In this document: piece by piece, positions 18,526 through 61,838 of the stretch | Layout of the letters: each line of letters begins with the position of its first letter | Numbering within the stretch: the first letter of the stretch is position 1 | From: Antedon mediterranea | Lineage: Eukaryota > Animalia > Echinodermata | Direction: 5' to 3' | Length of the DNA stretch: 64,000 bases | Assembly (NCBI RefSeq): GCF_964355755.1 | Contig: NC_092671.1 | Coordinates: 33,490,304-33,554,303, forward strand | Program-made: the position numbers and the translations under genes | The notes under the pieces: model-generated | What the model was told of the DNA's origin: nothing | Seen by the model: the letters and a program-made list of their open reading frames with translations, nothing else | Databases searched by the model: none

Positions 18526-20945
18526 ACCGAATTTATCCGAAAATTATCTGATTTGAATAAGACAATTTTTTTGGAGCGAAATCGGTTAAACTCCGTTTCC
18601 ACATACATTTTATCAGTTATTTATCGGTTAACCTTTTGAAGACGTGGCCCGTATCTCATACGGGGTAATTTACTGTCCCAGGACGCGAGGTCCGTATATG
18701 AACGGTTTGACTTTTTGGGGTCACTGAATTGAACTTTTTGAGCCTTTGACCTTTGTCCTAGGTAAAAAATGCACTTTTTCGGAAGGCCAAAACATTTCAC
18801 AACAATAATGTGATTCTAATATTTTAAGAGGCCCACTAAAAATACCGGCATTCAGTGAACAGCGTGTTACAATGCGGCATTATGGTAGCTACTCTTCTAC
18901 ATTACTTTGTTCTCACAACACTTTTCTGGATACTTGTCGAAGCCGTAAACATATGTTACGAAGAAACACGTTATTTCATGCTGAAGTTAGTTATAGTTGG
19001 TTGGGGTCGGTAAGTTTAATCTTCAATAAATCTACTTAAAAGGAAATGATTCATATTGTAAACCTAGTTAAATAAAATTAATCTGTTGGAAAAACAATTT
19101 AGGCCAAAATTGGTAAGGCTTTTTTACATTTGACAAGTATATGATAATTTAAGTATAAATTTTATTTTCACAATCACATAATCTTTAAGCAAATGAATGC
19201 ATCGATAATTGTCGCATGTTGAATTGGTAATTGTAGTTTATGGTTGAATAACTTATACATTAATTGTTAAAGCAACGTGAACAATATATTGGTCTTTTAT
19301 TTTAAGGATGTTAAATCTTTTAAATAGAGGTTCGGATGGAGTACCGAAAGGAGATTTTTCTGCACTTTTTTTGAAATGTTAGTATTTTATTTTATTGTTT
19401 ACTGTTCTGATGATGAGATCCATGACGTACAACGTTAATAGCAAGGTTACAATACAAACCTCAGAGAAAAAATGAGGTGTTCAGAACCATAGCATACAGT
19501 TATCGGTACAACTTAAGTGCGCCATTCAAGGTTGTTTCTAGTTGCATATTCATGTGCTCTTACTCACCATTATATGCTGTAGAAAATAAGCCTAGATCTA
19601 AGCCATAAAAAATTAGGACAACATTACCTTGGACAAATGTTGCTGTAAATAAAACATACTTCATAATTTTTTTTTATAATATAGTATACAAGTTTATGTT
19701 GTTTTTATTTTATAGTAGCCTAAAAACACATTTCATCAGGCTCTTGTGATGTTACGAAAATAAGCAGGCCCCATGACGGAGATGTCAGAATGCACGATCC
19801 TATTTTATATACAGTAGTCTACTGTGTATAGGAAATTGTGTTAACCACATGGAGGAAAAAATTATTGGTTACATTACATTTGTGGAATCACTTGACAATT
19901 TTTAATCCGACATGGAAAGCTTAAGTTAGACCTTGTTGTAAAAATACAATGCAATCAGTTACGTACGTCAGGAACCAATTTTTAAAAATGTTGAGGAGTT
20001 GAATCTTAAGTTACACTTTATTTTCATGATTCTTCCTTATTTATAAAAATAAACCGCCTAAGATAATAAAATAATTTGATCATAACTTGACTTGAAGAAT
20101 GTAGAAATGACTAGGTTAATGATCTTGTTATCCGTACCTATCTTATAAAGATGAGAGATCCAAGATTTTGTCATCTGAACATCATTCTCTAAAGGTAGAC
20201 ATGACGTCATTCGTCTCTTCTAAATCCTGTAGATATGATGATTAATAATTTAACTCATTCTCTTCTAAAGCCTGGTTCTAACTAGAACGCAATGCAAGAC
20301 ACAAGTCGTAACGCAAGCGACTTTTCCAATCAAAAGCGTTGGCGTATTACGTTCTTGCGTGGCGTCCTAGTAGGAAACACATCGATGCGTCTGCATTGAT
20401 AGTAGTACATGTAATTTAAAAAAAAATCTCTACAGACATCACCTAGAATTTTGTTTCAGTAATTGAAAAATAATATAATAATAATACGTTAATATCACGG
20501 CCAGCATGTTACATTGTGTGGGTTTCAATACAAAACACAAATAGACGATTACAATTACGTATCAACCATAGGTTTATTTAATACAGTACCAATAAAGGCT
20601 AAGCAAGCAAATTAATAAGCAAAAAATGAATACAAGAACACATTTAGTAGATCTAGATCTAGACATGTCACGTGTGTACATCACATCATTCACGCGTTCG
20701 ATTTTCAACGACGTATCCAAACCCAACTAAAAAAAGAAAAGAAATAATTTCACAAATTTTTATTGTAAATAAGGTTATGTGTAATAATGTTATGCAGGTG
20801 TGTGACCTGCACTGTAATAAGGTCAAATGTCAGATAACAGTGAACTACAATTGACGTTGGTGCGTTATGGTGCGGTATCGTTATCTGTCTTAAAACGATG
20901 CAAAAGGAATCATATAAAATTTGTTTGGGTACAATATACTCACTT

Positions 20946-23900
20946 TTATCCCCATCTTTGTTTTCTGCCTTTGCCTGAAATTAGTTTCATAGAAATAACA
21001 TTATACTCTGTGTTATAAGATGCGGTCAGATAAGATTTTCTACCACCGTACAAGGTGATAATGATAATTATACAATAAAATAATTATAATTGGTATCGAT
21101 GATAGTCAACTTTTTCCGTACTTGAAATTCTGAAATTTGCTTCATCTGATAATTACTTATAAATGGTAAACTTCCACAGACAACTGCTAATAATTTCTTG
21201 TAGGCCTACTTTAATTTTTATTATTCAAAACAAGGCCACAGACTAGTGAAAACATATGCACCATATGCATAATGATTTTGAAATTAGTGAGATAAGGACT
21301 ATGTAACAGTTTGCTGAACTCATTGAGGCCTAAAATATAACTATTTGGATTTCAAAATTGTGTTTGATCTTTGCAGTTGCAGAAACTCACGTGTACTTCG
21401 AATGATTCGGTCGCCGGCTAATAGATAGAAACAAAATATGTGTATGTCAACGATTCTCTGTTTTTTCCCCATTCATTTTTATGGTTAAAGCCTTGTTCGC
21501 ACTGGACTGGAAAATGGTAAATTTATCACGATAGCTTTACCGAATGTAATCGGAAGATTTGACCATCGTTCGCACTTGGATATTTTGCATGATAACCATG
21601 AGGGATTTTTTGATTGGTCAGTTTAGCCGCCGGCGCGGTTAATTTGACCAAATTAGGTCCAGTGCGATCGAGGCTTTAAACTTCAGTTTATCTAACTGAC
21701 GCCTTATACACTGTTTATGATTTCATTACATGTTATAAAAACGTAACGCCTTGCAGCACCCACACCTCCTCCTCTCCCACACGACGACATTTTTTCAATT
21801 ACGGTACCGCATATATAAATTAGCATTTCGCATATTCAAAAAGTATATATGTTATGTAACCTTCTTACACTGTACTAAACTAAGCACATTATTTTGATTT
21901 CATAAATTCTAAAAGTTGCAGTTACTCACGTTGCTCCTGATGGATTTGATCAACACCTATAGAATAACAATTAAACAAAATTACATCGATATATAAACAA
22001 AAATCAACCGGTAATGTACTAAATATATAGGCCTATTAATTTAAAAGGATAAATATAATTAAATCTGTGAGAAAAAACAAAAACTGATTTTTCTTTACAA
22101 CCGATACTCACTTATATCTCGGCGGATTCTGTTATAAGCTGAAATGCATCCTGCATCAAAATAGAAATATGTAATTATATGTATTAATAACCAATTCATT
22201 ATTTATTATTATGACTTGATAACAATTAGCAGTATGCAATAAAACTTACAATGTAATAATAATAGGTCATCGATAAAGCGGTATGAGAAAATAAGTATCA
22301 TAACATTTAATTCTCCGAGCGGAGAAGGTATCATTGTTTGTGGAGGGAGACTATTACGACGAGCTAGATGAGTAAGGCCTCTCATTTTTACTAAACCCTG
22401 TTTTCCAGTCGACGTTGAGTTACGTTGAGTAGCGTTGACTTTTCAAATCATTCAAGTTGAAAATAATAAATATATCGATGATCTAGCCTGATCGCTAATA
22501 TTTACATACTTTTATGCGATCGTTCATGGTTTCTTGGTTTTTTCGAGCGTTCCTTGGACAGGGCTGCATAAGTGTTGCAAAATCAAGGCCGGTCACGCGC
22601 ATCAGAGCCCTCGTGAAAATTGAAGTGACGCGTTTTGATGATCTTCAACCCAGCCTAATGCAGGACATTTTTTTCACTGATATCTTATTCTATGCTTACA
22701 CTAAGAAAACATTAAATACAATTGTTTTTGTGTTATAATTTAAATCAACTTACACCTGTTATTTTGAAATATCAGACCTTAAAAGTGTACAAAAAAGGTT
22801 AAAACCATGTTGCGTTTTAAAGATTCAAGTATGGTCAGCGCGTACGTATTTTTCCACATACCATGACGACGTAATTTGTGAACCATTTGATTGGCAGCCA
22901 ATTTTAACATGTTTTGCTTTAAATTAAATTTTTTTCAGGAAAATAAACGTTTTCAATCCAATTTTGGTTAAAGTTGATAACCATATTACAGTATCGATGT
23001 ATACATACATACAAAGCGCAGATCCGCTTTTAATAGTGGGGGGAGCGTATACAAATAAAATACTTTGCGAGTGAAGCGAGTAACATTAGGCTTGGTGGTG
23101 GCCTCCGGTTCGGATTCAGTGGGAAAAACGCCCTGGAATCCCGGTTCTGTATGTATGTATAGGTCGTTTCAGTCGATCCCCTCCCTCAGGATCTCCGCCG
23201 GTGCATACGTACATCGAATTAAGGCTACATCGCCAGAATTGTAATGTTATGTACAATTAACAAATTTAACAATATGCGTCATTGCTGTAACGTAAAGTTA
23301 TAATAAAATATATATATTTTATACTTACTTGCACCTTCCAAGCCATGTCGACAATCATCATCTTCAGAGTCAAACAAAGTAGAAAGAGTTAGATAGTAAT
23401 TAAGGTAAATAGTGTGTACACATGAATACAAAGGATATTTAAAAAGAAAGTGAAACAAATTGTATACTTAAAACCGATTTTTCACTAAACGAATTTGTTC
23501 GCGCGAATCCAACGTATCGCAAAAAAAAAAATCGTGTTTTCCACTGCAAGAGAGGGGATTTTCATATTTATCGCGTATCTTCTGAGCTAAAGCGAAAAGC
23601 TCGATGAACTAGAATTCGTCACACAGAAGGATTTGGAAAATGGAAAAATAAATACGTATACGTATAAACGTATAGGCCTAAGCTGACGCGTTCGATTAGC
23701 GCGAACACATTTGCCTAGAGTGAAAATCGGCTTTTAATACTTACTCTGACATTGCCCAAATTCAGGCTGCAATAAGAACACGACCAAAAATACTACGACC
23801 AACGTTTGTAATCTCCTGAAAATTGTCCTCAGAATATTAGTTTGAAAACAAAACATAGGATTAATAAGGTCATTGAATATTTAAACACCTACTCCGCTTC

Positions 23901-24101
23901 GGCTTTAGATCACGTTCGCGTCAGTACGTACAGCATTAACGACTTTTCGTTTATACGACGCGCCACGCGAATACTTACTGACTTTAAGATTTGCGCATAG
24001 TTAAGCCACGTATAGCAGCGTGATAAGGAAACAGTGAGATGCGATTTATTAGCAGATGTGAAAAACGCTTTAGTTGGTACTTACTGTTGAGCAGTTGCCA
24101 T
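20946..24101 (-). CDS. Micro-exon gene copy A: 80-aa secreted prepropeptide
   Basis: Exons 24085-24101, 23745-23815, 23329-23361, 22112-22150, 21930-21956, 21391-21417, 20946-20974, all with GT-AG introns. Spliced product MATAQQRLQTLVVVFLVVFLLQPEFGQCQNDDCRHGLEGARCISAYNRIRRDISVDQIHQEQPGDRIIRSTRKGRKQRWG*. Exons and splice sites are conserved in the paralogous copies. Confidence 0.8.
21488..21678. mobile_element. PIF/Harbinger-like MITE in intron 5 of the micro-exon gene
   Basis: aagccttgttcgcactggac ... gtccagtgcgatcgaggctt inverted ends; shared with copies B and C. Confidence 0.55.
23470..23734. mobile_element. PIF/Harbinger-like MITE in intron 2 of the micro-exon gene
   Basis: aaaccgatttttcactaaacgaatttgttcgcgcgaatc ... 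gattagcgcgaacacatttgcctagagtgaaaatcggctt inverted ends; shared with copies B and C. Confidence 0.65.
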
Positions 24102-38658: not shown

Positions 38659-38877
38659 ACTTAAGTGCGCCATTTAGGTTGTTTCTAGTTGCATATTCAT
38701 GTGCTCCTACCCACGTTTTTCATCTTTATTTCTACAGTATAGGCCTAGATCTCAGCTCTAAAACATTTCAACAAAATTACCTCGGAAAAATGTTGTAAAA
38801 GTATAAATTTCTGTTTATGTTTTATTTTGTAGTAAAAACACATTTTCCCAGCCCCTTGTGTTGTTACGAAAATAAGT

Positions 38878-40286: not shown

Positions 40287-41213
40287 TTAACTTTATTCTC
40301 ATTATTCTTCCTTATTTATAAAAACCGCCTAAGATAATCACATCATTTGATCATATCTTCTTGAATTAAAGAATGTAGAATGTAGAAATGACTAGGCTAA
40401 TGATCTCGTTATCCGAACATCATAAAGCTTTTAGACGAAAGAGATCCAAGATATTGTCATCATTCTCTTCTAAAGGTAGACATGACGTCATTCGTCTCTT
40501 CTAAATCCTGTAGATATGATGATTAATAATTTAATTCATTCTCTTCTAAAGCCTGAATCCAACTAGAACGCAATGCAAGAAACAAGTCGTAACGCAAACG
40601 ACTATTCCAATAAAAAGCGTTGGAGTATTATGTCCTTGCGTTTAGTAGGAAACACATCGATGCGTCTGGATTATTAGTACATTATGTATTTTCGAAAACA
40701 TTTTCTACAGACATCACCTAGAATTTTGTTTCAGTAATAAATTGGAAAATAATATAATAATAATACGCTAAATATCACGGCCAACATGTCGCATTGTGTG
40801 AGTTTCAATACAAAATACAAACGATTAAAATTACGTATCAACCATAGGTATTTTATTTAATAAAGTACCAATAAAGGCTAACCAAGCAAATTTAAAAGCA
40901 AAACATGAATACAATAGGACTAACACATTTAGTAGATCTAGACAAGTCACGTGTGTACATCACAGCATTCACACGTTCGATTTTCCATGACACACCCAAC
41001 TAAAAAAAGAAAAGAAACAATTTCACTCATTTTTATTGTAAATAATGTTATGTATAGTAATGTTATTAGGTATGTGACCTGCACTGTAAGGTCAAATGTC
41101 AGATAACAGTGAACTACAATTGATGTAGGTGCGTTATGGTACGGTATCGTTATCTGTCTTAAAACGATGAAAAATGAATCATATAACATTTTTTGGGTAC
41201 AATGTACTCACTT

Positions 41214-44200
41214 TTATCCTCGTCTTTGTTTTCTGCCTTTGCCTGAAACTAGTTTAAAGAAATAGCATTATACTCTGCATGTTTTTTTACCATATTTAAT
41301 GAGGGTGATCCATCCAGCTGATTGCTGATCATTAGGGACCCTCAGAGGTTCACAAGACAAACATATACACAAGATGATCTACATAAATAAAGTCTTATTA
41401 CAAGTCTTTGGGAGTGGAGTTGTAATTTTGTCCTTAGAAAAAAATCCTGACATGTGGCAGGACTTGAACCCAGGAAAAAAGATGCGTTCAGATAAGATGT
41501 ACATACCGCCGTACCAAGAGGAGGATTGATATTGATAATTATACAATAAAATAATCGATGATAGATTCGTTTAACTTTAAATTCTGAAATGTACTTCATC
41601 TGATAACTACTTTATTTGTTCATGGTAGGCCTATATGGTAAACTTCCACAGACTCCTAAATACTTCTTGTACTTTAATTTTCATTATTCAAAAGGCCACA
41701 GACTAAAGAAAATATATGCACATATGCATAATAATTTTGAAATTGGTGAGATAAGGACTAAGTAGCAGTTTTTCTGAACTCATTGAGGTTATTGTAATTG
41801 CAGTAACATATTTTTTATTCGAATTTAACTCTCAATTTTGATTTACAACTATGTATACATATATATATAAATCCAAAGGCAAATTACTGAAAAATGACAA
41901 TGCTGTGGGTATCAGTGGCTGGATCTCAATGGAGGTACAACAAAAAAGAAGCGAAAAACTAGATTAAAACGATAAAGTAAAACAGCCAGAGAAGTTAGCA
42001 GAGCTTTCGAGCAACACTAGCCCTTCATCAGTGCAAGTGAAGGAATTTGGATAACGTCATATGTAGCATAAGTGCTGCTTGGGTGGACAGGAATACAAGA
42101 AATACCACAAAAGGAGAAAGGGTGGTGAATGGTGGGTGGAGACTGAATAAGAGTAGAAAACAAAGAAGGTAGCTTGGTAGAGATATAAACAAATTTGGAA
42201 TGAAACTAAAAAACAGCTTAAATGGTGGTTAATATTGAAACTTAAATTTTGGTAGTAATAATTTTACCGATCTTGGAGTATGTTCTTAATGTTAAGTTCA
42301 AAAGGTTTTGTGGTAGTAATTCCCAGTGGTTTTTATTTTATTTTTATTTTATTCAGTTGTCAACCAACAGCGATGAAACCGCCACTAACAGGTTGAATCT
42401 AAACATAATAAACTATAAAATGTATTCAAATAAACAACAAAAACATAAACAATGATCACAACATTAAAAAGATTTAACAATTTTACCCTTAAATACATTT
42501 AAACTATCATAAAATAAATCAATATCCAAACAAGTAACCTATTAAATGTGTTAGGTAACCGCTGAAAAATACCTCGTTTTGTGCATTCAACACGACCACA
42601 AGGAACGTGAAGCAAACACTTGCTGCGAGTACAAGTTGGTATATTCAACTTAAACAAAGCAACAATAGGACAATCATAAACGGAATTGAATGAGTTGTAT
42701 AAAAAAAACCATATCAAAAACAACACTACGATTTTCAAGAGGAATAAGAGAAACATAATAATTAGGACAAGTGCGAGTAAGGAATCTAATGAATTTGTTC
42801 TGAACATTATAAACACGCTGAGATTGAGTACAAGAAATTGAATTAAAAATGACTGAACAGTATTCCAGGTGGGGGCACACGACTGAACGGTACAATGATG
42901 TTAATGCTCCACCATTGCCCATGAATCTACAGTTCCTCCATAACAAACCCAGCATTCTATTTGCCTTAGATACAACATAATTAAAATGTAAACAAAAATT
43001 TAACTTACTATCAATTAAAACTCCTAAATCCCTTTGAGAATTAACATAATCTAATTCCTGATCATTCAACTTATATTTGGTTATAATAGGCTTTGTTTTC
43101 AGAGTGATACACACAGATTTGCATTTGCTTATTTTTAAAGAAACTTTCCATGTCTCAGCCCATCCCACAAGAGAATCTAGATCCTCTTGCAGCAGATGAG
43201 CGTCGTCAAGTGAAGAGATTACTTTAAACAACTTAAGGTCATCAGCAAACAGAAGTGATTGTGAAATCTTAAAAACAGAAGGAAGGTCATTAATATACAA
43301 ATTAAAAAGCAAGGGGCCAATAATTGACCCATGCGGAAACCCAGAAAGTACAGGAAGCCACTCAGAACAGTTTCCACTGATGACTACCCTCTGCTTCCTG
43401 TCAGTCAAATAATCTGAAAACCATTTAAGAAGATTGCCTTTTAAACCCAACTTTGAAATCTTAAAAACAAGTAAATCATGAGGGACCGAGTCAAATGCTC
43501 TAGAAAAATCAGTGTAGACCACATCACATTGCTTCTGACTATTCAAAGCATTGTATGCTGTAGAAAGAAGCAATGCGAGGTTGGTCTGACACGATCTTCC
43601 AGGAATAAAACCATGCTGAACCGAAGTAATAACTGAACTTATGTTTAAAAACCGCATCGTGAACAATTGGTTCGAACAATTTCGATAAAGTAGGCAACAG
43701 AGAAACAGGACTGTAATTTTCCATTGCCTTTTTGGAGCCACTTTTGTGAATTGGCAAGACATTAGCAAATTTCCATGTCATAGGGAAAATTCCAGAGGTT
43801 ATTGAAAGCTGGTAAATTTTGGAAAGAGGATATGAAAGTGGAGATGCGGCTGATCTAAGAAGAGTATTACTAATTTGGTCATTACCAATGGCCTTATGAA
43901 TATTAACATTACCAACTGCTAATTCTACAGAATGTCGATCTACTACTAATGTTGACATATTATCAATTGAATAATCAGGAAGATCAGGACATTCTTGCAT
44001 TCCATGCAAAGAATTATCACTAAAAAAGGAATGAAAAAAAGTATTAAATAAAAATGCTTTTTCAGAGTCTGATTCAACAGAAATATTTCCCCGTGACATA
44101 ACCGAAGGAAAATCACTAGTCTTGTTTTTACATTTCAACCAACTCTCCAGAATCTCTTTTTATTCGAACCAATTTGTTCAGCAAGTGATTTAAGATAACT

Positions 44201-47200
44201 ATTATATTTTCTTTAACAAAGGTTCTTAAATGAGCGTCGAGCAAAACTAAAATTACTTTGAGTCATACGATTGTTGTTTTTCTTCATAAATCTGAAGCAC
44301 CTTTCTTACTCATACAATACTTTACGTAGTTCTTTATCAAACCATGGAGGTAGTTTCCTTCTCTTTCTAACTTTAGGGACAACGTCCTTGATAGCAGCGA
44401 TTAAAAGATCGTAAAATAATTCAACAGCATCGTTAATATTTCCATTAAAATTAATTAAATTCCATGGTACATAATTTAGTGTATTGCACAAATCATCCAG
44501 ATTCATATTTTTAAAATTGTAGAATATTCTATCATTAAAATTGTTAACATTATTATTGCACCTCGTATTAAACAAATGATAATCAATTCGTATTGATGAG
44601 TGATCAGAATCAAATATGTCATCAGCAGTGTAAACATTTTCAGATAGATTTTGGCTGCTAATAACCAAATCTAAAATTTTATCTAAACGTGTTGGAAATG
44701 TGTTACACTGTAAAAGTCCACAACTGTCCAAGAGAACGTCAATTAAATGTTCACCCATAGAATTACAAGGTTTACTTTGTCTATATTATTATATATATAT
44801 ATATATATATATATATTTTAAACTATTTTTATTTAAAAATTGTATTTGATCGTTCGACGAGTTGCAGATACTCACGTGTACTTCGAATGATTCGGTCGCC
44901 GGCTATTAGATAGAAACAAAATATATACTTATGTCAACGATTATCTGCCAGTCATTTTTATGGTCAAAGCCTTGTTGGCACTGGACTGGAAATGGTAAAT
45001 TTAATCACGGTAGCTTTACCTAATTTCATCGGAAGCTTTGACCATCGTTCGTTTTAACGTAATGTAATGTACTAATGTAACCGTGATGCTAAAAACAACG
45101 ATTGACATATAACATGTGTGATAACATGAGTCGCAAGCGCTTGGATCGGACGTTTTAGCCAGCGTAGTTAATGTTACCGATACATTTCAAGTTCTACTGG
45201 GCAGGTAGTGGTTGGTCAAGTTAACCATCGGAATTGCTTAGTTTAACCATAAGGGATTTTTGCTTGGTAAATTTAGTCGCCGGCGCTGTTAATATGACCA
45301 AATTAGGTCCAATGCGATCGAGGCTTTAGACTTCAGTTTATCTAACTGGCGCCTTATACACTGTTCATGATTTCATTACACGTTTTGAAAATATAACGCC
45401 TTACACACCATCCACACCTACTTTTCCTCTCCCTCACGACGACATTTTTTTTTCAATTAAGGTACCACATATACAATTTAGCATTTTGCATATTCAAAAT
45501 GTCTAAATGTTATGTAACCTTCTTACACTGTACTAAACTAAGCACATTATTTTGATTTCCTAAATTGTCTTTGATCCTTCTACAAGTTGCAGTTACTTGC
45601 GTTGCTCCTGATGGATTTGGTCAACGCCTATAGAATAACAATGAAACAAAAGTACATCGATATATACAAAAATCAACCGGTAATATACTAAATATATAGG
45701 CCTATTAATTTAAAAGGATAAAGATAATAATAATAATAATAATAATAAATAACATTTATAAAGCGCAAGAGACAAAGGTTTCAAAGCGCTGTGTTTTCCA
45801 AGATCAGTGCAAGTAGTAGCGTGCGATTATGCTTCTCTGAAGAGATGAGTTTTGAGTTTAGTTTTAAATGTGATAACAGATTTTGATGAGCGTATTTCGA
45901 GTGGTAGAGTGTTCCAGAGTTTTGGGGCTGCGACAGCGAAAGCACGATCACCGTAAAACCGAGTTCTGGAACGGGGTCCAGGTTTTAGAAGAAGTCTGCT
46001 GGATGAACGAAGCGAAGAGTTGGTTGACGGAGTAATGATGTCACATATGTAGGCTGGAGCACATCCGTTGATGGCCTTATATGTCAGCAACAGGATTTTA
46101 AAACGAATGCGCTGATCAACAGGCAACCAGTGTAAGTCACGTAAAACGGGAGAAATATGTTCATGTCGTTTAGTGCCAGTGATAAGTCTTGCGGCGGAAT
46201 TTTGGATTCGTTGAAGAGGAGACAGATAAGAAGTTGGTAGGCCGTACAGAAGCGAGTTATTACAGTCCAGACGAGATGAAACAAAAGCATGAACAAGACG
46301 TTCAGTTGATGTTTTGTCAAGGTACTTACGAATCTGGCCGATCTGGTAAATTCCAAAGGAAGCACCACGGCAAACATTACGAATGTGTTCTTTTAAACCG
46401 AGGCTGTTGTCTAGTTGGACGCCTAGATTTCTGGCTGAGCTGGAGGTAGAGACACTAGTATCTCCGATATGGACCAAAGGAAATGATGATGCCTCACGGA
46501 ACTTTGAATGAAAATGGATCATTTCAGTCTTGGAGTCGTTGAGCATGAGTTTATTTTGAATGGCCCATGAGCGAACATCTGCAATGCATGATTCAAGGCT
46601 GTTAACAGATTCAGAGTGATGTGTAGGTTTCATGATTAAATATAGTTGAGTGTCATCTGCATAGATCATATGACGAACTTCCGGGTGGGAATCAATGATG
46701 TTGCTGAGTGGTCCAGTGTATAAGATGAAATCGAGTGGACCTTTTACGGATCCCTGTGGTACACCCCAGGGTAGAGCGAACTCATCAGACATCGAATCAC
46801 CCACAATGATTGCTTGTCTACGATTCTCAAAATATGAAATAAACCATTTCAATGCGGTTCCGCTTATGCCGTATCTTTTATGAAGACGTTGAAATAATAA
46901 ATCATGATTGATAGTGTCAAATGCTGCGGAGTAGTCGAGTAGAATAAGTACCGCTTCATTACCTTTGTCTAAAGCAAGTAGTAGATCGTTTGTAACACGT
47001 AATAAAGCGGTTTCAGTTGAGTGAAATCTGTGAGAATAAGAAATAGCCTCCGTAATCAATCGGAACTGGAACATTTTGCTTTATATGCAGATGCCCTAAC
47101 CATATTTATTTATTTATGTACATTAAACCAAAAAGTGTAACATATGCCTGAACCTGACTTAGCTTTATATCTATATCTGACAGAAATAAAACATTGTCTC

Positions 47201-48670
47201 TTAAGAAAAACATGTATAAAAATAAGTAAATTAAACATGCAACATTAGAGATCGACAAAGAGATTATTTAACAATTTGTAAACTTCTTTATTTTTTATTT
47301 CCATTCTAAAATTCTTTTCTTAGAGGAAGGAAACACAAACTGATTTATCTTTACAACCGATACTCACCTATATCTCGGCGGATTCTGTTATAAGCTGAAA
47401 TGCATCCTGCATTGAAATAGAAGTATGTAATTAAAGTATATGTATTTAATAACCAATTCATTATTTAATATTATTACTTGATAACAATAGCAGTATGCAA
47501 TAAAACTGAAAATGTAATAATAATAGGTCATCGATAAAGTACTATGAGAAAATAAGTAAACATTTAATCCTCCGAGAGCGGAGAAGGTATCCGAGAATAT
47601 AGATTCGCACTGAGCACAAGGGATTGTTTGTGGAGGGAAACTATTACGTTGAGCTAGAGGAGTAAGGCCTCTCATTTTTACTTTTACGCGATCGTTGATT
47701 GTTCATGGTTTCTTGGTTTTCGAGCGTTGAGTTATAATAAAATATATATATATTTTATACTTACTTGCACCTTCCAAGCCACGACAACCTTTTTCTTCAG
47801 AGTCATACAAATTAGAAAGAGTTAGATAGTAATTAAGGTAAATGGCGTGTACACTTGAATACAAAGGATATTTAAAAACAAAGTGAAACAAATTGTATAC
47901 TTAAAACCGATTTTCCACTAAACGAATTTGTTCGCGCGAATTCAACGTATCGCAGAAAATAAAATCGTGTTTTCCACTACAAGAGAGGCGATTTTCATAT
48001 TCATGGCGTATCTTCTGAGCTGAAGCGAAGAGCTCAATGAACTAGAATTCGTCACAGAGAAGGATTTGGAAAATGGAAACATGAATACGCACACGTATAA
48101 ACCTAAAGCCGATTTTCCACTAGGCGAATTTGTTCGCGCGAATCAAAAGCGCCAGCTCATACGCATGCGTATAGATGTTTCCATCTTCCAAATCCCTCTA
48201 TACGCATGTGTATAAGCTGACGCTTTCGATTCGCGCGAACAAATTCGCCTAGTGGAAAATCGGCTTAAGCTGACGCGCTAGATTCACGCGAACACATTTG
48301 CCTAGTGTGAAAATCGGCTTACTTACTCTGGCATTGCCCAAATTCAGGCTCCAATAAGAATACGACCAAAAATACTACGACCAACGTTTGTAATCTTCTG
48401 AAAATTGTACTAAAAATATTAGTTTAAAAACAAAACATGGGATTAATAAGGTCAGTGAATATTTAAGCACCTACTCCGCTTCGGCTCTAGATCAAGTACA
48501 GTATTAACGACTTTTCGTTTACAGTACGCGCCACGCGCATAGTATAGCCGGCTAGCCACGTAGAGCAGCGTGAAGACGAAACAGTGAGATGCGATTTTAT
48601 TAGCCGCAGCCGGGACCGGAGTAGATATGAAAGACGCTTTAGTTGGTACTTACAATTGAGCAGCTGCCAT
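41214..48670 (-). CDS. Micro-exon gene copy B: 79-aa secreted prepropeptide
   Basis: Exons 48654-48670, 48327-48397, 47765-47794, 47368-47406, 45601-45627 (GC donor), 44876-44902, 41214-41242. Product MAAAQLRLQTLVVVFLVVFLLEPEFGQCQKKGCRGLEGARCISAYNRIRRDIGVDQIHQEQPGDRIIRSTRKGRKQRRG*. Confidence 0.78.
41285..41475 (-). mobile_element. tRNA-derived SINE, 5'-truncated
   Basis: Near match to 11301-11485; absent from the paralogous site in copy A (about 21008). Confidence 0.7.
41956..42330 (-). mobile_element. Penelope-like element 3' fragment
   Basis: Minus-strand LGITTTKPFELNIK resembles the GIY-YIG C-terminal end and is followed by a CTGATGA...GAAA hammerhead core. Confidence 0.6.
41995..42045 (-). 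ncRNA. Putative minimal hammerhead ribozyme core (Penelope type)
   Basis: Minus strand CTGATGA-A-GGGC-tagtgtt-GCTC-GAAA-GCTC, with stem II able to pair; second copy at about 56341-56391. Confidence 0.5.
42331..44785 (-). mobile_element. CR1-group LINE, 5'-truncated and frameshifted
   Basis: ORFs 44306-44758 (APE end, LDLV..SDH), 43539-44138 and 42674-43768 (QHGF, YTDFSRAFDSVPH, FADD, RDLGV, LYRSVV.PHLEYCS); (AATAA)n tail. Confidence 0.9.
45728..47021 (-). mobile_element. L2-clade LINE, 5'-truncated, reading frame intact
   Basis: HSTETALL, LLDYSAAFDT, YADDTQLY, ARNLGV, LHWLPV, GDRAFAVAAPKLWN, FKTKLKTHLF; (TTA)n tail; the empty site aaagataat|gaaatctgtg is at 60061-60079. Confidence 0.92.
48106..48266. 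mobile_element. Young Harbinger-like MITE nested in an older member of the same family (47901-48320)
   Basis: Perfect TIRs agccgattttccactaggcgaatttgttcgcgcgaatc, flanked by TAA; also at about 61274-61434; absent from copy A. Confidence 0.75.
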
Positions 48671-50685: not shown

Positions 50686-51215
50686 TCAAGTTCAAGTTCA
50701 AGTTCAAGTTAAAATTTATTGTCAAATACACAGTAAATGAAATTTGCCTTCCAAGGTTAAAAAAAATGCTATGTATAAAACATTATGAACAGTATAAATA
50801 TTAAAATTCTATATAAGGAATAAAATATAAAACGTCTCAAATTATCTTTTAAATTGCTTGTTGTATTGCCTGATTGCACACGGAAGAAATGATTTATTAT
50901 GACGCTCAGTCTTCTTAATTGAAGGAATCATCCTTCCGGATCTACTGAAATTTATAAAGTTAAAAAGAGGATGAGACTGGTCGTTAATTATACATTTTAG
51001 TTTTTTCTCAATAACCTTATCGCATATCATGGGTAGATGGGACGTTTGCACCTATTACCTTCTTAGCCATTTTTATTATTCTCTGTAATTTATTTGAGTT
51101 ATTCTTAGATAAACTATTTAGCCATACAATACAGCAAAATGTTAATATGGACTGTATCATAGCCTGATGGAATAGAGACAGCGCATCTCTGCCAATCTTA
51201 AATCTTAAAGTCATA
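50686..51215 (-). mobile_element. Rex1/Babar-like LINE 3' fragment
   Basis: FHQAMIQSILTFCCIVW...LQRIIKMAKKVIG; IINDQSHPL...KTERHNKSFLPCAIRQYN; (TTGAAC)n tail. Confidence 0.8.
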
Positions 51216-52467: not shown

Positions 52468-53266
52468 GGCCCTGCAACTGCTCAAAATACGGTATAAAAA
52501 TACGGTATTTAAAATACCGTATTTTTTTCTGCTAAAAATACTTCTTGGGTGGTCGTGCTAAATTTCATCTTTATTACCCAAACTGCCATTCTTGAAGCGG
52601 AAGTCTGTGTTTGACCTAAGAATACTGAGCGTGCGCACTGTAACTCAGGAATTCACACTCTCGATGTCTACCGGTTGTCACACACACTTGGTATGGTACA
52701 CGATCTCCTAATATTGTGTCCAAAACCTCGTAATGTAGACAAGTTATTCTGTCCCTAGCAGACTTCGAGTTGTTGTCCTTTGCAAAGTTGTATTACTTTT
52801 TGAAGCTATTCAGTTTCGTGTTCACTTGCTTCGGATAAAAATCTACATTGTATTCCTGTTTTTGTTCGAAATTACTTTATAAATAGTCCTTTTATTGCCC
52901 CTTAGTTTTCCTGAAAGTTTTGCTTCCCCCCACAAATTAATAGTAAAAACGGTAACTTCTTCGCTCCACATTTTCGCACGTGTGTTAAACAACTGAGCTG
53001 TCACAGCGACAAAAAAACACAACACGATGTTGACCTCATGTCACAGGACAAAAAAGAAACGGTATTCTTTATTGGCAGCAGAAACGGGTACATAAAATAC
53101 GGTATAAATTCGTAAATACCGTATTTTATCCACACATTTTGTGGGGCAAATACGGTATTTTTTTATGAGCGATGTTTCTGCTGCCAAACAAAAAATACGG
53201 TATTAATACGGTATTCATAAAATACCGTATTAAATCCGGTATTTTCTTGGCAGCAGAAACAGGGCT
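52468..53266. mobile_element. PIF/Harbinger-like non-autonomous element
   Basis: GAA|GGCCCTG ... CAGGGCT|GAA with a 3-bp TSD; many AATACGGTAT subterminal repeats; empty site catggaaagcgcaag at 39628. Confidence 0.7.
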
Positions 53267-54045
53267 GAAAGCGCAAGTTACGCCTTGTTGTAAATATACA
53301 ATATGCGCATGCGTATTGTATTTTGAAAATAACCTTTGTTACGTAGTAGGTCAGAAACATATTTTTTTTAATTTGGATAATCAGATCATTTTATATCTTC
53401 CTTGTATGTAGAAATGACGAGATTAATGATCTCGTTATCCGAACATCTCTTATAAATGTTTTAGACGTAAGAGATCTAAGATCTTGTCATATGAACATCA
53501 TTCTCTTCTAAAGGTAGACATGACGTCATAACCGTCTCTTCTAAATCATGTAGATATGATTAATAATCATTCTCTTCTAAAGCCTGGTTCTCACTGAGAA
53601 CGCAATGCAAGATACAAGTCGCAACGTAAGCGACTTTTCCAATCAGACAATAGACGATTACAATTACGTATCAACCATAGGTATTTTATTTAATACAGTA
53701 CCAATAAAGGCTAAGCAAGCAAATTAATAAGCAAAATTAAATACAATATGACTAACACATTTAGTAGATCTAGATCAAGACATGTCAAGTGTGTACTACA
53801 CAGCATTCACACGTTCGATTTTCCATGACGTATCCAAACCCAACTAAAAAAAAATAAAATAAAATAATAGTTTCACTAATTTTTATTGTAATTAATGCTA
53901 TGTGTCTGACCTGCACTGTAAGGTCAAATGTCAGTTAACAGTGAACTACAGTTGACGTTGGTGCGTTATGGTGCGGTATCGTACTTTGAAACGATGTAAA
54001 ATGAATCATTTTACATTTTTTGGTACAATTTACTCACTTTTATCC

Positions 54046-57000
54046 CTATCTTCGTCTTCTGTCCTCTGAAACTAGTTTTACAGAAAAAAAGTGCAATAAG
54101 ATAATGATACAATAAAACAATCATACATTTGAATGTGTAAAATATAATTTTAGCAATTTAGTTTACAACTTTTTGTAATTTTAGACCTTACCTACTTATT
54201 TTGACAATTAATAAATAATCGTCAGAGTTCAACAATCGCTGTGCGATTTATAATCGTTACAAATAATTAAAGCGCATGAGCATGATTCTTATATATAGCA
54301 TGAAATAGTCTAAAACATAATTAATGTTTATGAATGCAATAGAGAAAATAATTTCATAAGGTGCAAGATGAATACTTGCTTATCAAGTAAACAGATCAGC
54401 GTCAAGAAAACAAAACATTGAGATGCAATTTTATTTGCCGGAGCCAGACCGGAGCCGAATCGGAGCACATTTGAACGATGCTTAATACTACTTTTCTTTT
54501 TTAGGCTTAACAGTTGTACCCACTAGAGATTTTGATAATAATTCAATTGAAATAGGAAAATATTAATAATTATATTAATGATAAGTTAAAGGAAGCCATG
54601 TTGTGCAACATGACGATGATTCTGGAGGAGGAGGTTATGTGAGATTGGTTGTTATAGTTAGGGTTTTAGTTATCTCAAAGCTAAGGCCAGGCTATGCTTA
54701 TGGACAAGTACTGCATAATATAAAGTATATATACTGAAAATTATGGTTGAGGAGGAGGAAGTTAATTATTGCATTTATATATTATTATAACGCATTACAA
54801 AATGACTCACTTTATACTTTAATCAATCTAACTTACCGTTAGCGTTATTTACAACAAGAATATGGACACATTAATTATAGATTATTAGTTCCAAGTCATT
54901 AACAAAAAATATATAATGGATCGAGCAAATACTGAAATGAATTCATTTTTTTCAGTTCGTATTTCTCTTTCTTCAACCTACCAATTCGGTTAACTCCCCT
55001 TTGACCTACTCTTCCTTGGAATATCTCTGTAAAGAATTGAAAAAAACCTGTACTTTAATTGAAACATTTGACAATATACATTGACTTTATTGTGTTTTCC
55101 TATGTATTTGTCACATTTCTACATAGCTATGTCGATAATTGTTTATACTATTTAGGAGTAGGTTTGCAAATTTATTACATTTTAACGCTGTTCTTTTTGA
55201 CTGTTTTATTGCAATGTTTTATTCCTACTCACCTCCATCCCGACGAATTCTGCTACCATGTTCTTCTGAAATGCAATAAAACAAGAATACACACGATCAT
55301 GTATGCTTCACTATCATTTTTTAAACATTCTGTTATGGTGCCAAATAATGGCCTATAATTAGTTTGTTCCTTTATTATGTTATCCACTTGTACATAGTTA
55401 CTGAAGTGAGGTTTTCTATTTTCTTTTATAATATGCTATAATTAAATTGATTGGTCTTTATGTAGTCTGTTGCTGAAGAAAAATGACGTTGTATCAAGAT
55501 GATCGTCATCACTGGTATGACCTGAAATGCAGTAGGCCTACATTATGGAAGTTAATGGCAGCCATGATGTGCAACATGGCGATGGTTCTGGAAAAGGAGG
55601 TTATGTGAGATGGGTTTTTAGGTTAGGAGTTTAGTTACTAAAGCTAAGGCCGTAAAGATAGGCTTATGGCCAATAGATACTGTATAGTATACGTTTTTAT
55701 GCAGATTATTATGGAGGAGGAAGTTAGTTGGTGCATTTAATTATTATGATAACGCATTGCAACATAACGCTAACTTTTATACGTTATTTGATAACATACC
55801 GTTAGCGTTATTTACAATAGGATTATTAACACATTAATTATAGATTATTAGTTCCAAGTCATTAAAAAAAATATATAATGGATCCAACAAATACTGAAAT
55901 GAATTCATTTTTTTCAATTTGTATTTTTCTTTCTTCAACCTACCAATTCGGTTAACTCCCTTTTGACCTCCTCTTCCTTGGAATATCTCTGTAAAGAATT
56001 GAAAAAAACCTGTACTTTAATTGAAACATTTGACAATATACATTGACTTTATTGTGTTTTCCTATGTATTTGTCACATTTCTACATAGCTATGTCGATAA
56101 TTGTTTATACTATTTAGGAGTAGGTTTGCAAATGTATTACATTTTAACGCTGTTCTTTTTGACTGTTTTATTGCAATGTTTTATTCCTACTCACCTCCAT
56201 CCCGACCACATTCTGTTATGGTGCCAAATAATGGCCTATAATTAGTTTGTTCCTTCATTATGTTATCCACTTGTACATAGTTACTGAAGTGAGGTTTTCT
56301 AAGCTAAATCAAAACGATAAAGTAAAACAGCCAGAGAAGTTAGCAGAGCTTTCGAGCAACACTAGCCCTTCATCAGTGCAAGTGAAGGAATTTGGATAAC
56401 GTCATATGCAGCATAAGTGCTGCTTGGGTGGACAGGAATACAAGAAATACAACAAAAGGAGAAAGGGTGGTGAATGGTGGGTGGAGACTGAATAAGAGTA
56501 GAAAACAAAGAAGGTAGCTTGGTAGAGATATAAACAATTTTGGAATGAAACTAAAAAACAGCTTAAATGGTGGTTAATATTGAAACTTAAATTTTGGTAG
56601 TAATAATTTTACCGATCTGGGATTATGTTCTTAATGTTAAGTCCAAAAGGTTTTGTGGTAGTAATTCCCAGTGGTTTTTATTTTATTTTTATTTTATTCA
56701 GTTGTCAACCAACAGCGATGAAACCGCCACTAACAGGTTGAATCTAAACATAATAAACTATAAAATGTATTCAAATAAACAACAAAAACATAAACAATGA
56801 TCACAACATTAAAAAGATTTAACAATTTTACCCTTAAATACATTTAAACTATCATAAAATAAATCAATATCCAAACAAGTAACCTATTAAATGTGTTAGG
56901 TAACCGCTGAAAAATACCTCGTTTTGTGCATTCAACACGACCACAAGGAACGTGAAGCAAACACTTGCTGCGAGTACAAGTTGGTATATTCAACTTAAAC

Positions 57001-60000
57001 AAAGCAACAATAGGACAATCATAAACGGAATTGAATGAGTTGTATAAAAAAAACCATATCAAAAACAACACTACGATTTTCAAGAGGAATAAGAGAAACA
57101 TAATAATTAGGACAAGTGCGAGTAAGGAATCTAATGAATTTGTTCTGAACATTATAAACACGCTGAGATTGAGTACAAGAAATTGAATTAAAAATGACTG
57201 AACAGTATTCCAGGTGGGGGCACACGACTGAACGGTACAATGATGTTAATGCTCCACCATTGCCCATGAATCTACAGTTCCTCCATAACAAACCCAGCAT
57301 TCTATTTGCCTTAGATACAACATAATTAAAATGTAAACAAAAATTTAACTTACTATCAATTAAAACTCCTAAATCCCTTTGAGAATTAACATAATCTAAT
57401 TCCTGATCATTCAACTTATATTTGGTTATAATAGGCTTTGTTTTCAGAGTGATACACACAGATTTGCATTTGCTTATTTTTAAAGAAACTTTCCATGTCT
57501 CAGCCCATCCCACAAGAGAATCTAGATCCTCTTGCAGCAGATGAGCGTCGTCAAGTGAAGAGATTACTTTAAACAACTTAAGGTCATCAGCAAACAGAAG
57601 TGATTGTGAAATCTTAAAAACAGAAGGAAGGTCATTAATATACAAATTAAAAAGCAAGGGGCCAATAATTGACCCATGCGGAAACCCAGAAAGTACAGGA
57701 AGCCACTCAGAACAGTTTCCACTGATGACTACCCTCTGCTTCCTGTCAGTCAAATAATCTGAAAACCATTTAAGAAGATTGCCTTTTAAACCCAACTTTG
57801 AAATCTTAAAAACAAGTAAATCATGAGGGACCGAGTCAAATGCTCTAGAAAAATCAGTGTAGACCACATCACATTGCTTCTGACTATTCAAAGCATTGTA
57901 TGCTGTAGAAAGAAGCAATGCGAGGTTGGTCTGACACGATCTTCCAGGAATAAAACCATGCTGAACCGAAGTAATAACTGAACTTATGTTTAAAAACCGC
58001 ATCGTGAACAATTGGTTCGAACAATTTCGATAAAGTAGGCAACAGAGAAACAGGACTGTAATTTTCCATTGCCTTTTTGGAGCCACTTTTGTGAATTGGC
58101 AAGACATTAGCAAATTTCCATGTCATAGGGAAAATTCCAGAGGTTATTGAAAGCTGGTAAATTTTGGAAAGAGGATATGAAAGTGGAGATGCGGCTGATC
58201 TAAGAAGAGTATTACTAATTTGGTCATTACCAATGGCCTTATGAATATTAACATTACCAACTGCTAATTCTACAGAATGTCGATCTACTACTAATGTTGA
58301 CATATTATCAATTGAATAATCAGGAAGATCAGGACATTCTTGCATTCCATGCAAAGAATTATCACTAAAAAAGGAATGAAAAAAAGTATTAAATAAAAAT
58401 GCTTTTTCAGAGTCTGATTCAACAGAAATATTTCCCCGTGACATAACCGAAGGAAAATCACTAGTCTTGTTTTTACATTTCAACCAACTCTCCAGAATCT
58501 CTTTTTATTCGAACCAATTTGTTCAGCAAGTGATTTAAGATAACTATTATATTTTCTTTAACAAAGGTTCTTAAATGAGCGTCGAGCAAAACTAAAATTA
58601 CTTTGAGTCATACGATTGTTGTTTTTCTTCATAAATCTGAAGCACCTTTCTTACTCATACAATACTTTACGTAGTTCTTTATCAAACCATGGAGGTAGTT
58701 TCCTTCTCTTTCTAACTTTAGGGACAACGTCCTTGATAGCAGCGATTAAAAGATCGTAAAATAATTCAACAGCATCGTTAATATTTCCATTAAAATTAAT
58801 TAAATTCCATGGTACATAATTTAGTGTATTGCACAAATCATCCAGATTCATATTTTTAAAATTGTAGAATATTCTATCATTAAAATTGTTAACATTATTA
58901 TTGCACCTCGTATTAAACAAATGATAATCAATTCGTATTGATGAGTGATCAGAATCAAATATGTCATCAGCAGTGTAAACATTTTCAGATAGATTTTGGC
59001 TGCTAATAACCAAATCTAAAATTTTATCTAAACGTGTTGGAAATGTGTTACACTGTAAAAGTCCACAACTGTCCAAGAGAACGTCAATTAAATGTTCACC
59101 CATAGAATTACAAGGTTTACTTTGTCTATATTATTATATATATATATATATATATATTTTAAACTATTTTTATTTAAAAATTGTATTTGATCGTTCGACG
59201 AGTTGCAGATACTCACGTGTACTTCGAATGATTCGGTCGCCGGCTATTAGATAGAAACAAAATATATACTTATGTCAACGATTATCTGCCAGTCATTTTT
59301 ATGGTCAAAGCCTTGTTGGCACAGGACTGGAAATGGTAAATTTAATCACGGTAGCTTTACCTAATTTCATCGGAAGCTTTGACTATCGTTCGTTTTAACG
59401 TAATGTAATGTACTAATGTAACCGTGATGCTAAAAACAACGATTGACATATAACATGTGTGATAACATGAGTCGCACGCGCTTGGATCGGACGTTTTAGC
59501 CAGCGTAGTTAATGTTACCGATACATTTCAAGTTCTATTGGGCAGGTAGTGGTTGGTCAAGTTAACCATCGGAATTGCTTAGTTTAACCATAAGGGATTT
59601 TTGCTTGGTAAATTTAGTCGCCGGCGCTGTTAATATGACCAAATTAGGTCCAGTGCGATCGAGGCTTTAGACTTCAGTTTATCTAACTGGCGCCTTATAC
59701 ACTGTTCATGATTTCATTACACGTTTTGAAAATATAACGCCTTACACACCATCCACACCTACTTTTCCTCTCCCTCACGACGACATTTTTTTTTCAATTA
59801 AGGTACCACATATACAATTTAGCATTTTGCATATTCAAAATGTCTAAATGTTATGTAACCTTCTTACACTGTACTAAACTAAGCACATTATTTTGATTTC
59901 CTAAATTGTCTTTGATCCTTCTACAAGTTGCAGTTACTTACGTTGCTCCTGATGGATTTGGTCAACGCCTATAGAATAACAATGAAACAAAAGTACATCG

Positions 60001-61838
60001 ATATATACAAAAATCAACCGGTAATATACTAAATATATAGGCCTATTAATTTAAAAGGATAAAGATAATGAAATCTGTGAGAATAAGAAATAGCCTCCGT
60101 AATCAATCGGAACTGGAACATTTTGCTTTATATGCAGATGCCCTAACCATATTTATTTATTTATGTACATTAAACCAAAAAGTGTAACATATGCCTGAAC
60201 CTGACTTAGCTTTATATCTATATCTGACAGAAATAAAACATTGTCTCTTAAGAAAAACATGTATAAAAATAAGTAAATTAAACATGCAACATTAGAGATC
60301 GACAAAGAGATTATTTAACAATTTGTAAACTTCTTTATTTTTTATTTCCATTCTAAAATTCTTTTCTTAGAGGAAGGAAACACAAACTGATTTATCTTTA
60401 CAACCGATACTCACCTATATCTCGGCGGATTCTGTTATAAGCTGAAATGCATCCTGCATTGAAATAGAAGTATGTAATTAAAGTATATGTATTTAATAAC
60501 CAATTCATTATTTAATATTATTACTTGATAACAATAGCAGTATGCAATAAAACTGAAAATGTAATAATAATAGGTCATCGATAAAGTACTATGAGAAAAT
60601 AAGTAAACATTTAATCCTCCGAGAGCGGAGAAGGTATCCGAGAATATAGATTCGCACTGAGCACAAGGGATTGTTTGTGGAGGGAAACTATTACGTTGAG
60701 CTAGAGGAGTAAGGCCTCTCATTTTTACTATACCCTGTTTTCCAGTCGACGTTGAGTTACGTTAAGTTGAGTTGAATTTTCAAATCGTTAAAGTTGAAAA
60801 TAAATATAATTTTATATCGATTATCGTGTCGGATCGCTAATATTTACACACTTTTACGCGATCGTTGATTGTTCATGGTTTCTTGGTTTTCGAGCGTTGA
60901 GTTATAATAAAATATATATATTTTATACTTACTTGCACCTTCCAAGCCACGACAACCTTTTTCTTCAGAGTCATACAAATTAGAAAGAGTTAGATAGTAA
61001 TTAAGGTAAATGGCGTGTACACTTGAATACAAAGGATATTTAAAAACAAAGTGAAACAAATTGTATACTTAAAACCGATTTTCCACTAAACGAATTTGTT
61101 CGCGCGAATTCAACGTATCGCAGAAAATAAAATCGTGTTTTCCACTACAAGAGAGGCGATTTTCATATTCATGGCGTATCTTCTGAGCTGAAGCGAAGAG
61201 CTCAATGAACTAGAATTCGTCACAGAGAAGGATTTGGAAAATGGAAACATGAATACGCACACGTATAAGCCTAAAGCCGATTTTCCACTAGGCGAATTTG
61301 TTCGCGCGAATCAAAAGCGCCAGCTTATACGCATGCGTATAGATGTTTCCATCTTCCAAATCCCTCTATACGCATGTGTATAAGCTGACGCTTTCGATTC
61401 GCGCGAACAAATTCGCCTAGTGGAAAATCGGCTTAAGCTGACGCGTTAGATTCGCGCGAACACATTTGCCTAGTGTGAAAATCGGCTTACTTACTCTGGC
61501 ATTGCCCAAATTCAGGCTCCAATAAGAATACGACCAAAAATACTACGACCAACGTTTGTAATCTTCTGAAAATTGTACTAAAAATATTAGTTTAAAAACA
61601 AAACATGGGATTAATAAGGTCAGTGAATATTTAAGCACCTACTCCGCTTCGGCTCTAGATCAAGTACAGTATTAACGACTTTTCGTTTACAGTACGCGCC
61701 ACGCGCATAGTATAGCCGGCTAGCCACGTAGAGCAGCGTGAAGACGAAACAGTGAGATGCGATTTTATTAGCCGCAGCCAGGACCGGAGTAGATATGAAA
61801 GACGCTTTAGTTGGTACTTACAATTGAGCAGCTGCCAT
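54046..61838 (-). CDS. Micro-exon gene copy C (chimeric, with extra micro-exons)
   Basis: B-like exons 61822-61838, 61495-61565, 60933-60962, 60415-60453, 59942-59968, 59217-59243; then phase-1 exons 55944-55988 (IFQGRGGQKGVNRI), 55233-55265 (EHGSRIRRDG), 54982-55026 (IFQGRVGQRGVNRI); last coding exon 54046-54065 (DRRRR*). All introns are GT-AG. Confidence 0.65.
54580..56300. repeat. Tandem duplication, period 962 bp, with two micro-exons per unit
   Basis: 54590-55418 matches 55555-56300 (ORF-track offset 55059 vs 56021). The second unit has a deletion of about 85 bp at 56206 that removes the acceptor of its RIRRD exon. Confidence 0.85.

Follow-up and report, generated by a model that had tools for sequence, protein, structure and literature searches.

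The stretch of DNA analysed here (the window; 64,000 nt of the echinoderm Antedon mediterranea, contig NC_092671.1 of NCBI RefSeq assembly GCF_964355755.1, positions 33,490,304 to 33,554,303) contains a gene family built mostly of very short exons. Self-alignment revealed three paralogous blocks on the minus strand, A, B and C, and copy C carries additional micro-exons in a tandem duplication. The window is AT-rich animal DNA with long interspersed nuclear elements (LINEs) and other elements, and its GC content was 28-40% in 2-kb bins. The motif TAGGCCTA, which we take to be typical of echinoderm DNA, was seen 23 times against 0.63 expected.

In each copy, exons of 17, 71, 30/33, 39, 27, 27, and 28/31 nt with AG/GT ends were found on the minus strand. 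When the exons were joined by script, open frames of 80 (A), 79 (B), and 117 (C) codons were obtained. Exons 3-6 and the three C-specific exons (45, 33, and 45 nt) are in phase 1-1 throughout, and exons of 45 nt or less hold 291 of the 362 modelled exon bases (162 if the limit is set at 36 nt). The products of the joined frames have a hydrophobic N-terminus, cysteines at residues 28, 33, and 41/42, and several RxxR motifs, which lie at residues 47, 65, 91, and 114 in the copy C model. Hydropathy, peaking at 3.8 over 11 residues at the N-terminus, predicts a signal peptide. In exons 4 and 6 and in the 33-nt exon, the RxxR is placed two codons ahead of the donor.

The last predicted coding exon has two possible acceptors. 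The outer AG gives a basic tail and a stop in all three copies. If the inner AG is used, or if the exon is skipped, the frame would continue into the putative final exon; there it stays open for 16-18 codons that include cysteines in B and C, and it meets an earlier stop in A. We favour the outer AG, and hence a predicted RRRR end, with fair confidence, because it is the first AG after the pyrimidine tract and its frame matches that of exon 4. At exon 5 of copy B (45601-45627), the donor is GCAAGT instead of GTAAGT, one of very few differences between B and C; this reflects either a GC-AG intron or in-frame skipping of the exon.

A 962-bp tandem unit holding a 33-nt and a 45-nt exon had been proposed for copy C in an earlier reading of the sequence (the original prediction), and we found it on the minus strand with a period of 962. 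The duplicate 45-nt exons differ, as had been described, by two substitutions at exon positions 19 and 27 (G/V and K/R), both of which replace an amino acid. Loss of the acceptor in the upstream 33-nt duplicate was also confirmed: 79 nt including the acceptor and about 20 exon bases were deleted between two CAGAAT microhomologies. A weak AG 18 nt upstream at the remnant makes an in-frame 18-nt exon possible. Upstream of the 45-nt exon, the two units differ by 0-1 mismatches in 50 nt, and downstream of it by 5-11; the mismatches climb steadily from one end of the unit to the other, in the way expected near the border of a conversion tract. Three symmetric AG..GT micro-exon candidates were counted in the 2.27-kb region by criteria that had been chosen after the exons were seen; 1000 dinucleotide shuffles averaged 0.027 such candidates and never gave as many as three. 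A RIRR-coding pattern, designed from the exons themselves, matched four times in the window against 0.04 expected.

Splicing of these exons was analysed with contigs of a single run of RNA type, X1. Its RNA status is a guess, which we accepted on exon-only cover and GT-AG joints. Depths were compared among X1, X2, X4, and X5, four of the five runs listed, over 55560-62300, and X1 alone was used over 49400-55550. Contig joints were taken from the best-supported records; the records are filtered, so gaps in X1 cover prove nothing. A joint of exon 4 to exon 2 (60452>61496) had a depth of 672.7 in X1 and of 0 in X2, X4, and X5, which are DNA-like. One X1 contig with a depth of 392.2 contained the joint 55026>55233, which skips a 206-nt GT-AG intron (CT..AC on the plus strand). 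In the same contig, a 45-nt exon is also attached to the upstream end of the 33-nt exon, giving the order 45>33>45, and the letters between the two 45-nt pieces are those of the 33-nt exon (31 of 31). In a second contig with a depth of 97.6, the 45>33 junction is 3 nt shorter and still in frame. X1 bin depths matched the exon lengths alone, and the flanking intronic bins had no cover. Exon-only depth, GT-AG joints, and the exact match of the 33-nt exon together indicated that the 45- and 33-nt exons are spliced in this species. Transcripts that skip all exons of the 54.9-56.0 kb region, one outcome against which the original prediction had been set, are thus not what X1 holds. Membership of these segments in a high-copy repeat family, the other such outcome, was not observed either: X4 depth was 151-309 over 55560-56234, compared with 278,450 in the next bin. 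X1 had no cover at 55374-55550, at 54550-54961, on exon 1, or on the last coding exon. Nor did any listed X1 contig with a depth near 400 lie on the putative final exon of C, and the 45>33>45 contig may therefore derive from a different paralog that carries the same cassette.

Table 1. Features of the micro-exon locus, by position in the window (joints are those listed for X1).
Feature	Position	Strand	Comment
Tandem unit 1	55549..56301	-	Truncated at 5' end
Tandem unit 2	54583..55418	-	Found by self-alignment
33-nt RIRR exon, EHGSRIRRDG	55233..55265	-	Acceptor ...gcatttcag, donor gtgagt
45-nt exon copy a, IFQGRGGQKGVNRI	55944..55988	-	A 45-nt exon, of version a or b, joined to 33-nt exon in X1
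45-nt exon copy b, IFQGRVGQRGVNRI	54982..55026	-	Low-coordinate end of X1 joint 55026>55233
33-nt exon remnant	56195..56212	-	79-nt deletion; donor intact; no X1 support among joints listed
Exon-4-like stretch, best read as dead relic	55512..55544	-	4-nt insertion behind old outer acceptor
Copy C exon 1, coding part	61822..61838	-	ATG, 17 nt, phase-2 donor; conserved in A and B; no X1 contig cover
Copy C exon 2, 71 nt	61495..61565	-	Hydrophobic core and predicted signal-peptide end
Copy C exon 3, 30 nt (33 in A)	60933..60962	-	Predicted start of mature peptide, first Cys; inclusion predicted
Copy C exon 4, 39 nt	60415..60453	-	Second Cys and RIRR; outer acceptor used in X1
Copy C exon 5, 27 nt	59942..59968	-	Exon 6 duplicate without RxxR; no X1 joint among those listed
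Copy C exon 6, 27 nt	59217..59243	-	RIIR site; identical in A, B, and C; no X1 joint among those listed
Last predicted coding exon, 28 nt	54038..54065	-	Outer AG gives EDRRRR-stop; inner AG at +7 gives open 21-nt exon
Putative final exon	53670..53843	-	Acceptor 53843 and AATAAA 53690 conserved in A, B, and C; 3' end approximate
Paralog A	20578..24101	-	Exons 1-7 and putative final exon; without 33/45-nt exons
Paralog B	40857..48670	-	Two LINE insertions; exon 5 donor GC; without 33/45-nt exons
LINE insertion common to B and C	56301..59130	-	RVT_1; low end is end of homogenised tract

Comparison of B and C showed that exons 1-6 are identical and that only 10 of 2238 aligned intron positions differ, whereas the copies diverge by 8% before exon 1 and by 10% after the last coding exon. 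The segment 41956-45751 equals 56301-60092 at 99.3%, and the shared tract ends at 56301. The flanks of the LINE in this tract match copy A only in B, so the homogenised tract most likely moved from B to C and removed the 5' part of unit 1. Immediately past the tract comes the C-specific part, which is not simply a duplicate of the present exon 4 or 5 of C; the C-specific exons would thus be part of a paralog that is older and of a different build, with a history separate from that of the 5' half of C. A search with the LINE gave named matches in coral, brittle star, sea cucumber, and anemone at 51-58%.

On a quite improbable reading, copy C would be a chimera of recent origin with unused extra exons, and the 45>33>45 contig would come from a paralog elsewhere, or its 45>33 junction would be the back-splice of a two-exon circle. 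The near-identity of the 5' half of C to B up to 56301 fits it. The lack of a listed X1 contig with a depth near 400 on the putative final exon of C fits it as well. DNA contig depths also hint at more cassettes than the window holds. The contig with the intact acceptor had depths of 1111, 139, and 61 in X2, X4, and X5, against 310, 56, and 34 for the joint read as copy A, a ratio of about 2-3.5 that is a hint and not a copy-number assay. At position 56256, all X2, X4, and X5 depth carries the unit-2 letter, and the sample behind these runs may carry more intact cassettes and not the broken one. The chimera also draws on a fourth, diverged family member in X1 (below). However, the letters of the 33-nt exon match the window exactly, and the order 45a-33-45b in the window predicts exactly this contig with no need for a circle. 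All splice sites along the path are intact with the frame open to 117 codons, and the hole on the final exon is not probative in filtered records.

The fourth member was suggested by a 543-nt X1 contig with a depth of 31.6, which covers 53582-53833 and matches the putative final exon with 18 differing letters. Of 15 listed variant letters, five are those of A and four those of B, and the first 300 nt lie off the window. The contig is likely a spliced transcript of a diverged paralog, with the caveat that its cut coincides with a masked T-tract. Another X1 contig skips 846 nt at 52453-53300, consistent with an insertion resembling a miniature inverted-repeat transposable element that is absent from that individual or copy.

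We then considered how modules were gained. The original prediction held that the family grows by copying a cleavage-site exon together with a peptide exon. This describes the latest duplication, of the 33- and 45-nt exons, but it is not supported as a general rule. The 33-nt exon had been said to carry the same RIRR site as exon 4, and about 17-18 of the last 27 nt are indeed identical between the two, a similarity reached by none of 5000 shuffles. Exons 5 and 6 share 14 of 27 nt, and the introns behind them are similar with a score that none of 2000 shuffles reached. Among the 42 exon pairs compared, the exon 4/33-nt result and the exon 5/6 intron result survived correction for multiple testing; the similarity of exon 4 to exon 6 (14/27, p=0.003) was borderline and that to exon 5 (12/27, p=0.03) weak. 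No homology of intron flanks was found between exon 4 and the 33-nt exon, which indicates that this duplication is old. Exon 4 contains an inner TGCATTTCAG, the acceptor of the 33-nt exon, and reads it as the codons C-I-S, so a shift of the acceptor would have added or removed the second cysteine. When read in the RRRR frame, the last coding exon can be aligned with exon 4 if 4 nt are taken as inserted (p=0.001 by a score that includes splice signals), but a test on the exons alone was null (7/27), and we regard the relationship as suggestive. Descent of the 45-nt exon from an RxRR exon was also tried and was not significant (p=0.42 against exon 4; p=0.052 against exon 5).

Exon 5 counts as a peptide exon and yet duplicates exon 6, which carries RIIR; the older growth was therefore mostly the copying of one RxRR micro-exon, some copies of which lost the site, and only the latest event copied a two-exon cassette. 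The sequence comparisons thus support the addition of modules to the gene by tandem exon duplication.

A further candidate exon at about 55530 had been reported to have an acceptor and no convincing donor. The acceptor is present (exon start at 55521), and no consensus donor occurs within 200 nt. Because the candidate can also be aligned with the 5' end of exon 4 (8 of 500 region-wide shuffles reached the score), it is best read as a dead relic of exon 4, which the 45>33 join would bridge if the X1 contig comes from this locus. In the intron before the last coding exon of C, a 62-nt segment (54393-54454) is 81% identical to part of intron 1 of B (48562-48621). It is probably a small dispersed repeat, because several X1 contigs end there.

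Coding sequences of A and C differ by 8 replacement and 7 silent changes (pN 0.049, pS 0.15; Fisher p=0.047). Residues 30-32, at the predicted mature N-terminus, account for four of the eight replacements, and neither RxxR site has changed. For the 45-nt pair, we considered positive selection and rejected it, as the probability that both changes are replacements is 0.57 and the local divergence is no different.

With slightly more confidence than doubt, we read the product as a secreted precursor from which a furin-type convertase would release several short peptides, probably of defensive or exocrine use, and the gene as gaining peptides by in-frame exon duplication. Signal cleavage after residue 28 would leave an N-terminal glutamine, which could form pyroglutamate, and a disulfide would close a loop in the first mature peptide, 7 residues long in B and C and 8 in A. 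Further cleavage would follow RIRR, RIIR, RIRR, and possibly RRRR. Copy C would then yield peptides of 18 (charge +3), 14 (-4), 22 (+1), and 19 residues (-1, or +3 if the terminal RRRR is kept), two more than A or B, so that the products would be a pyroglutamate disulfide-loop peptide and short linear peptides. Because the RxxR stands two codons before the donor, each copied exon would add a cleavage site and a new peptide with the frame intact. Exon copies that lose their arginines would become part of a peptide body, and modules would be turned over as neighbouring copies undergo unequal crossing-over and conversion.

Several observations weigh against this polyprotein. The two C-specific peptides are near neutral and not strongly cationic, which makes a membrane-lytic antimicrobial action doubtful. 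The charge of the loop peptide reverses from -1 in A to +3 in B and C. No kappaB-like site was found within 700 nt upstream of A, B, or C. The divergence of exons was lower than that of aligned intron blocks (6.6% vs 8.0%), but not significantly so (p=0.59), and neither a join of exon 6 to the 45-nt exon nor one into the last exon was seen among the X1 joints listed.

The same exon structure might instead belong to a disordered secreted protein that stays mostly uncut and serves in mucus, adhesive, or matrix; exon skipping would diversify it in the manner of schistosome micro-exon genes (MEGs), and its arginine-rich motifs would bind polyanions instead of being cut. We think this unlikely. Exons mostly of 45 nt or less with symmetric internal ones, as described for MEGs, the basic tails of the A and B products (+5 and +6), and the two versions of the 45>33 junction in X1 would suit such a protein. 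On the other hand, RxxR followed by D or S is kept at a fixed position unchanged across paralogs while the mature N-terminus varies, and no exon-skipping joint was found among the X1 joints listed. Similarly doubtful is an extension of the polyprotein reading, an echinoderm peptide-library effector family in which almost every exon after the signal descends from one RxRR micro-exon of about 27 nt, and in which cassette copy number, conversion, tandem acceptors, and skipping make individual-specific cocktails. Tandem acceptors could then drop a cysteine or switch the C-terminus, and diversification in the style of MEGs would exist outside flatworms, coupled to convertase processing.

It is rather improbable that the gene codes for a lineage-specific neuropeptide or hormone precursor, whose pyroglutamate disulfide-loop peptide would be a receptor ligand, the other peptides being spacers or co-released signals. 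TGACG, a half-site of the cAMP response element, is located 19-23 nt before the ATG in all three copies, and crinoid two-cysteine precursors without homologs elsewhere have been described (PMC9793003). However, two such crinoid orphans, PCNP3 and PCNP19, are predicted there to be amidated, and the peptides here have no internal Gly-Lys/Arg amidation signals. A tandem multi-copy family with conversion and exon turnover, and a loop peptide with reversed charge between paralogs, also speak against a receptor ligand.

Other elements were noted in the window. Copy B alone has in intron 4 a second LINE fragment (45751-47022) with a reverse transcriptase frame of 417 aa, which was either inserted after homogenisation of B and C or lost from C. 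Upstream of A (24204-24872) and B (48757-49429), but not of C, lies a tandem duplication of about 350 bp with a CAGGTG E-box in each unit. Short AG..GT stretches of 9, 21, and 15 nt on the minus strand (~19572-19580, ~38712-38732, and ~38075-38089), downstream of A and B and beyond the putative final exon, resemble micro-exons and may be due to chance. A fragment like the last exon of glycine amidinotransferase (GATM) lies at 13138-13497 on the minus strand and runs into a Cys-rich stretch (CVCPDNCVC), presumably similar to a leucine-rich repeat N-cap; its part at 13330-13482 had its best named matches in Lytechinus (90%), Diadema (82%), and Acanthaster (80%). Both pieces are possibly captured gene fragments. 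At 3165-10213, inverted arms of 681 nt (99%) surround open reading frames of 234 and 1247 aa with weak similarity to XPG_I (E 0.04) and a 158-nt tandem array (8914-9508); the element is likely an intact DNA transposon of unclear class.

Relatives of the gene were searched in several ways. A weak 40-residue query from around copy A exon 2, of which 23 residues are exonic and the others are read from the intron frame, gave one candidate and no homolog at E<=10 among proteins of 71-2000 aa. Pfam gave no match to the exon-2 frame of copy A, and ESM Atlas gave no usable match to 30 residues. These queries were exon-2 fragments and not the spliced protein, thus distant homologs are possible. Exact exon-pattern scans of metagenome contigs yielded 0 loci. 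None of six exon-derived peptide motifs (two spanning junctions) was found in literature text, figures being outside the search, and no description of such a family was found by title or beginning of abstract. Within these weak searches, neither the family nor its combination of micro-exons like those of MEGs with one convertase site per exon was found, whereas the exon-level mode of growth is known from other animals.

Genes with exons of 17-71 nt, a product of less than 120 residues, and no homolog found are easily missed by annotation, and a whole family of secreted peptides may be unrecorded in this lineage. According to one review, the antimicrobial peptides of echinoderms number only 17, in six species (PMC12466427), and if the present peptides are active they would be new chemistry. 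The locus keeps all stages of module turnover side by side: besides an old duplicate that no longer has the site, it shows a two-exon duplication of recent date, the loss of an acceptor by deletion, a presumed dead exon, and a tract left by conversion, which makes it a compact test case for the gain of peptides by polyprotein precursors.

Known echinoderm precursors resemble the gene only in part. Sea urchin centrocins and strongylocins are likewise secreted precursors, comparable in size (89-121 aa), cut into more than one piece (PMC4805251, PMC12466427). Centrocins are described with a 30-aa prosequence, a heavy chain of 30-32 aa, an interchain, a light chain, and one interchain disulfide (PMC4805251), whereas here both mature cysteines are in the first peptide directly after the signal. 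Strongylocins have a six-cysteine mature peptide (PMC12466427), compared with two mature cysteines in our main model. The vasopressin/oxytocin, calcitonin, and MCH types of echinoderm neuropeptides are marked by neurophysin, C-terminal amidation, or C-x10-C with D/W/R (PMC9793003); here the loop is of 7-8 residues, with no neurophysin and no amidation Gly after the loop peptide.

Closer parallels are found in the mode of growth and in processing. The predicted product has what marks convertase-cut multi-peptide defence precursors, a predicted signal peptide and repeated RxxR motifs bounding short peptides. Skin peptide genes of pipid frogs (magainin, caerulein, XPF, PGLa) also form tandem clusters and code for RXXR-flanked peptides behind a signal peptide (predicted here), with tandem-repeated peptide exons in X. 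laevis; unequal crossing-over and conversion have been proposed for them, with purifying selection on signal and cleavage sites (PMC3731216). They are derived from cck, have 3-5 exons, and release known amphipathic or hormone-like peptides (PMC3731216), while the present genes have 8-11 exons mostly of 27-45 nt, a single RxRR micro-exon as the repeat unit, and no known sequence in common with them. Drosophila Baramicin, like other furin-cut antimicrobial polyproteins, similarly yields several peptides that are freed at furin sites of a single precursor, with modules gained and lost among paralogs; it is an insect family described with protein-level repeats and no mention of one exon per module, and with a function that has been shown (bioRxiv 10.1101/2021.02.24.432738), and here function is predicted. 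In Nasonia, nasonin-2 and nasonin-6 are defence-type genes that grew by duplication of phase-1 exons with one module per exon, but these modules are defensin folds without processing signals (PMC2853521). The analogy with pipid genes, Baramicin, and nasonins favours a defensive or exocrine role. As in schistosome MEGs, coding sequence lies mostly in very short symmetric exons behind an N-terminal signal peptide (predicted here), and the genes are multiple, their products secreted, and their introns occupied by transposons. MEGs are reported to be restricted to flatworms, with 10-20 exons mostly of 15 bp and diversification by alternative splicing; the MEG motifs quoted were not evident here by eye, and convertase sites do not appear in the available descriptions (PMC4350168; bioRxiv 10.1101/2023.06.21.545858). 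The gene belongs to none of the families compared, and we regard it as a pipid- and Baramicin-like polyprotein on a MEG-like plan.

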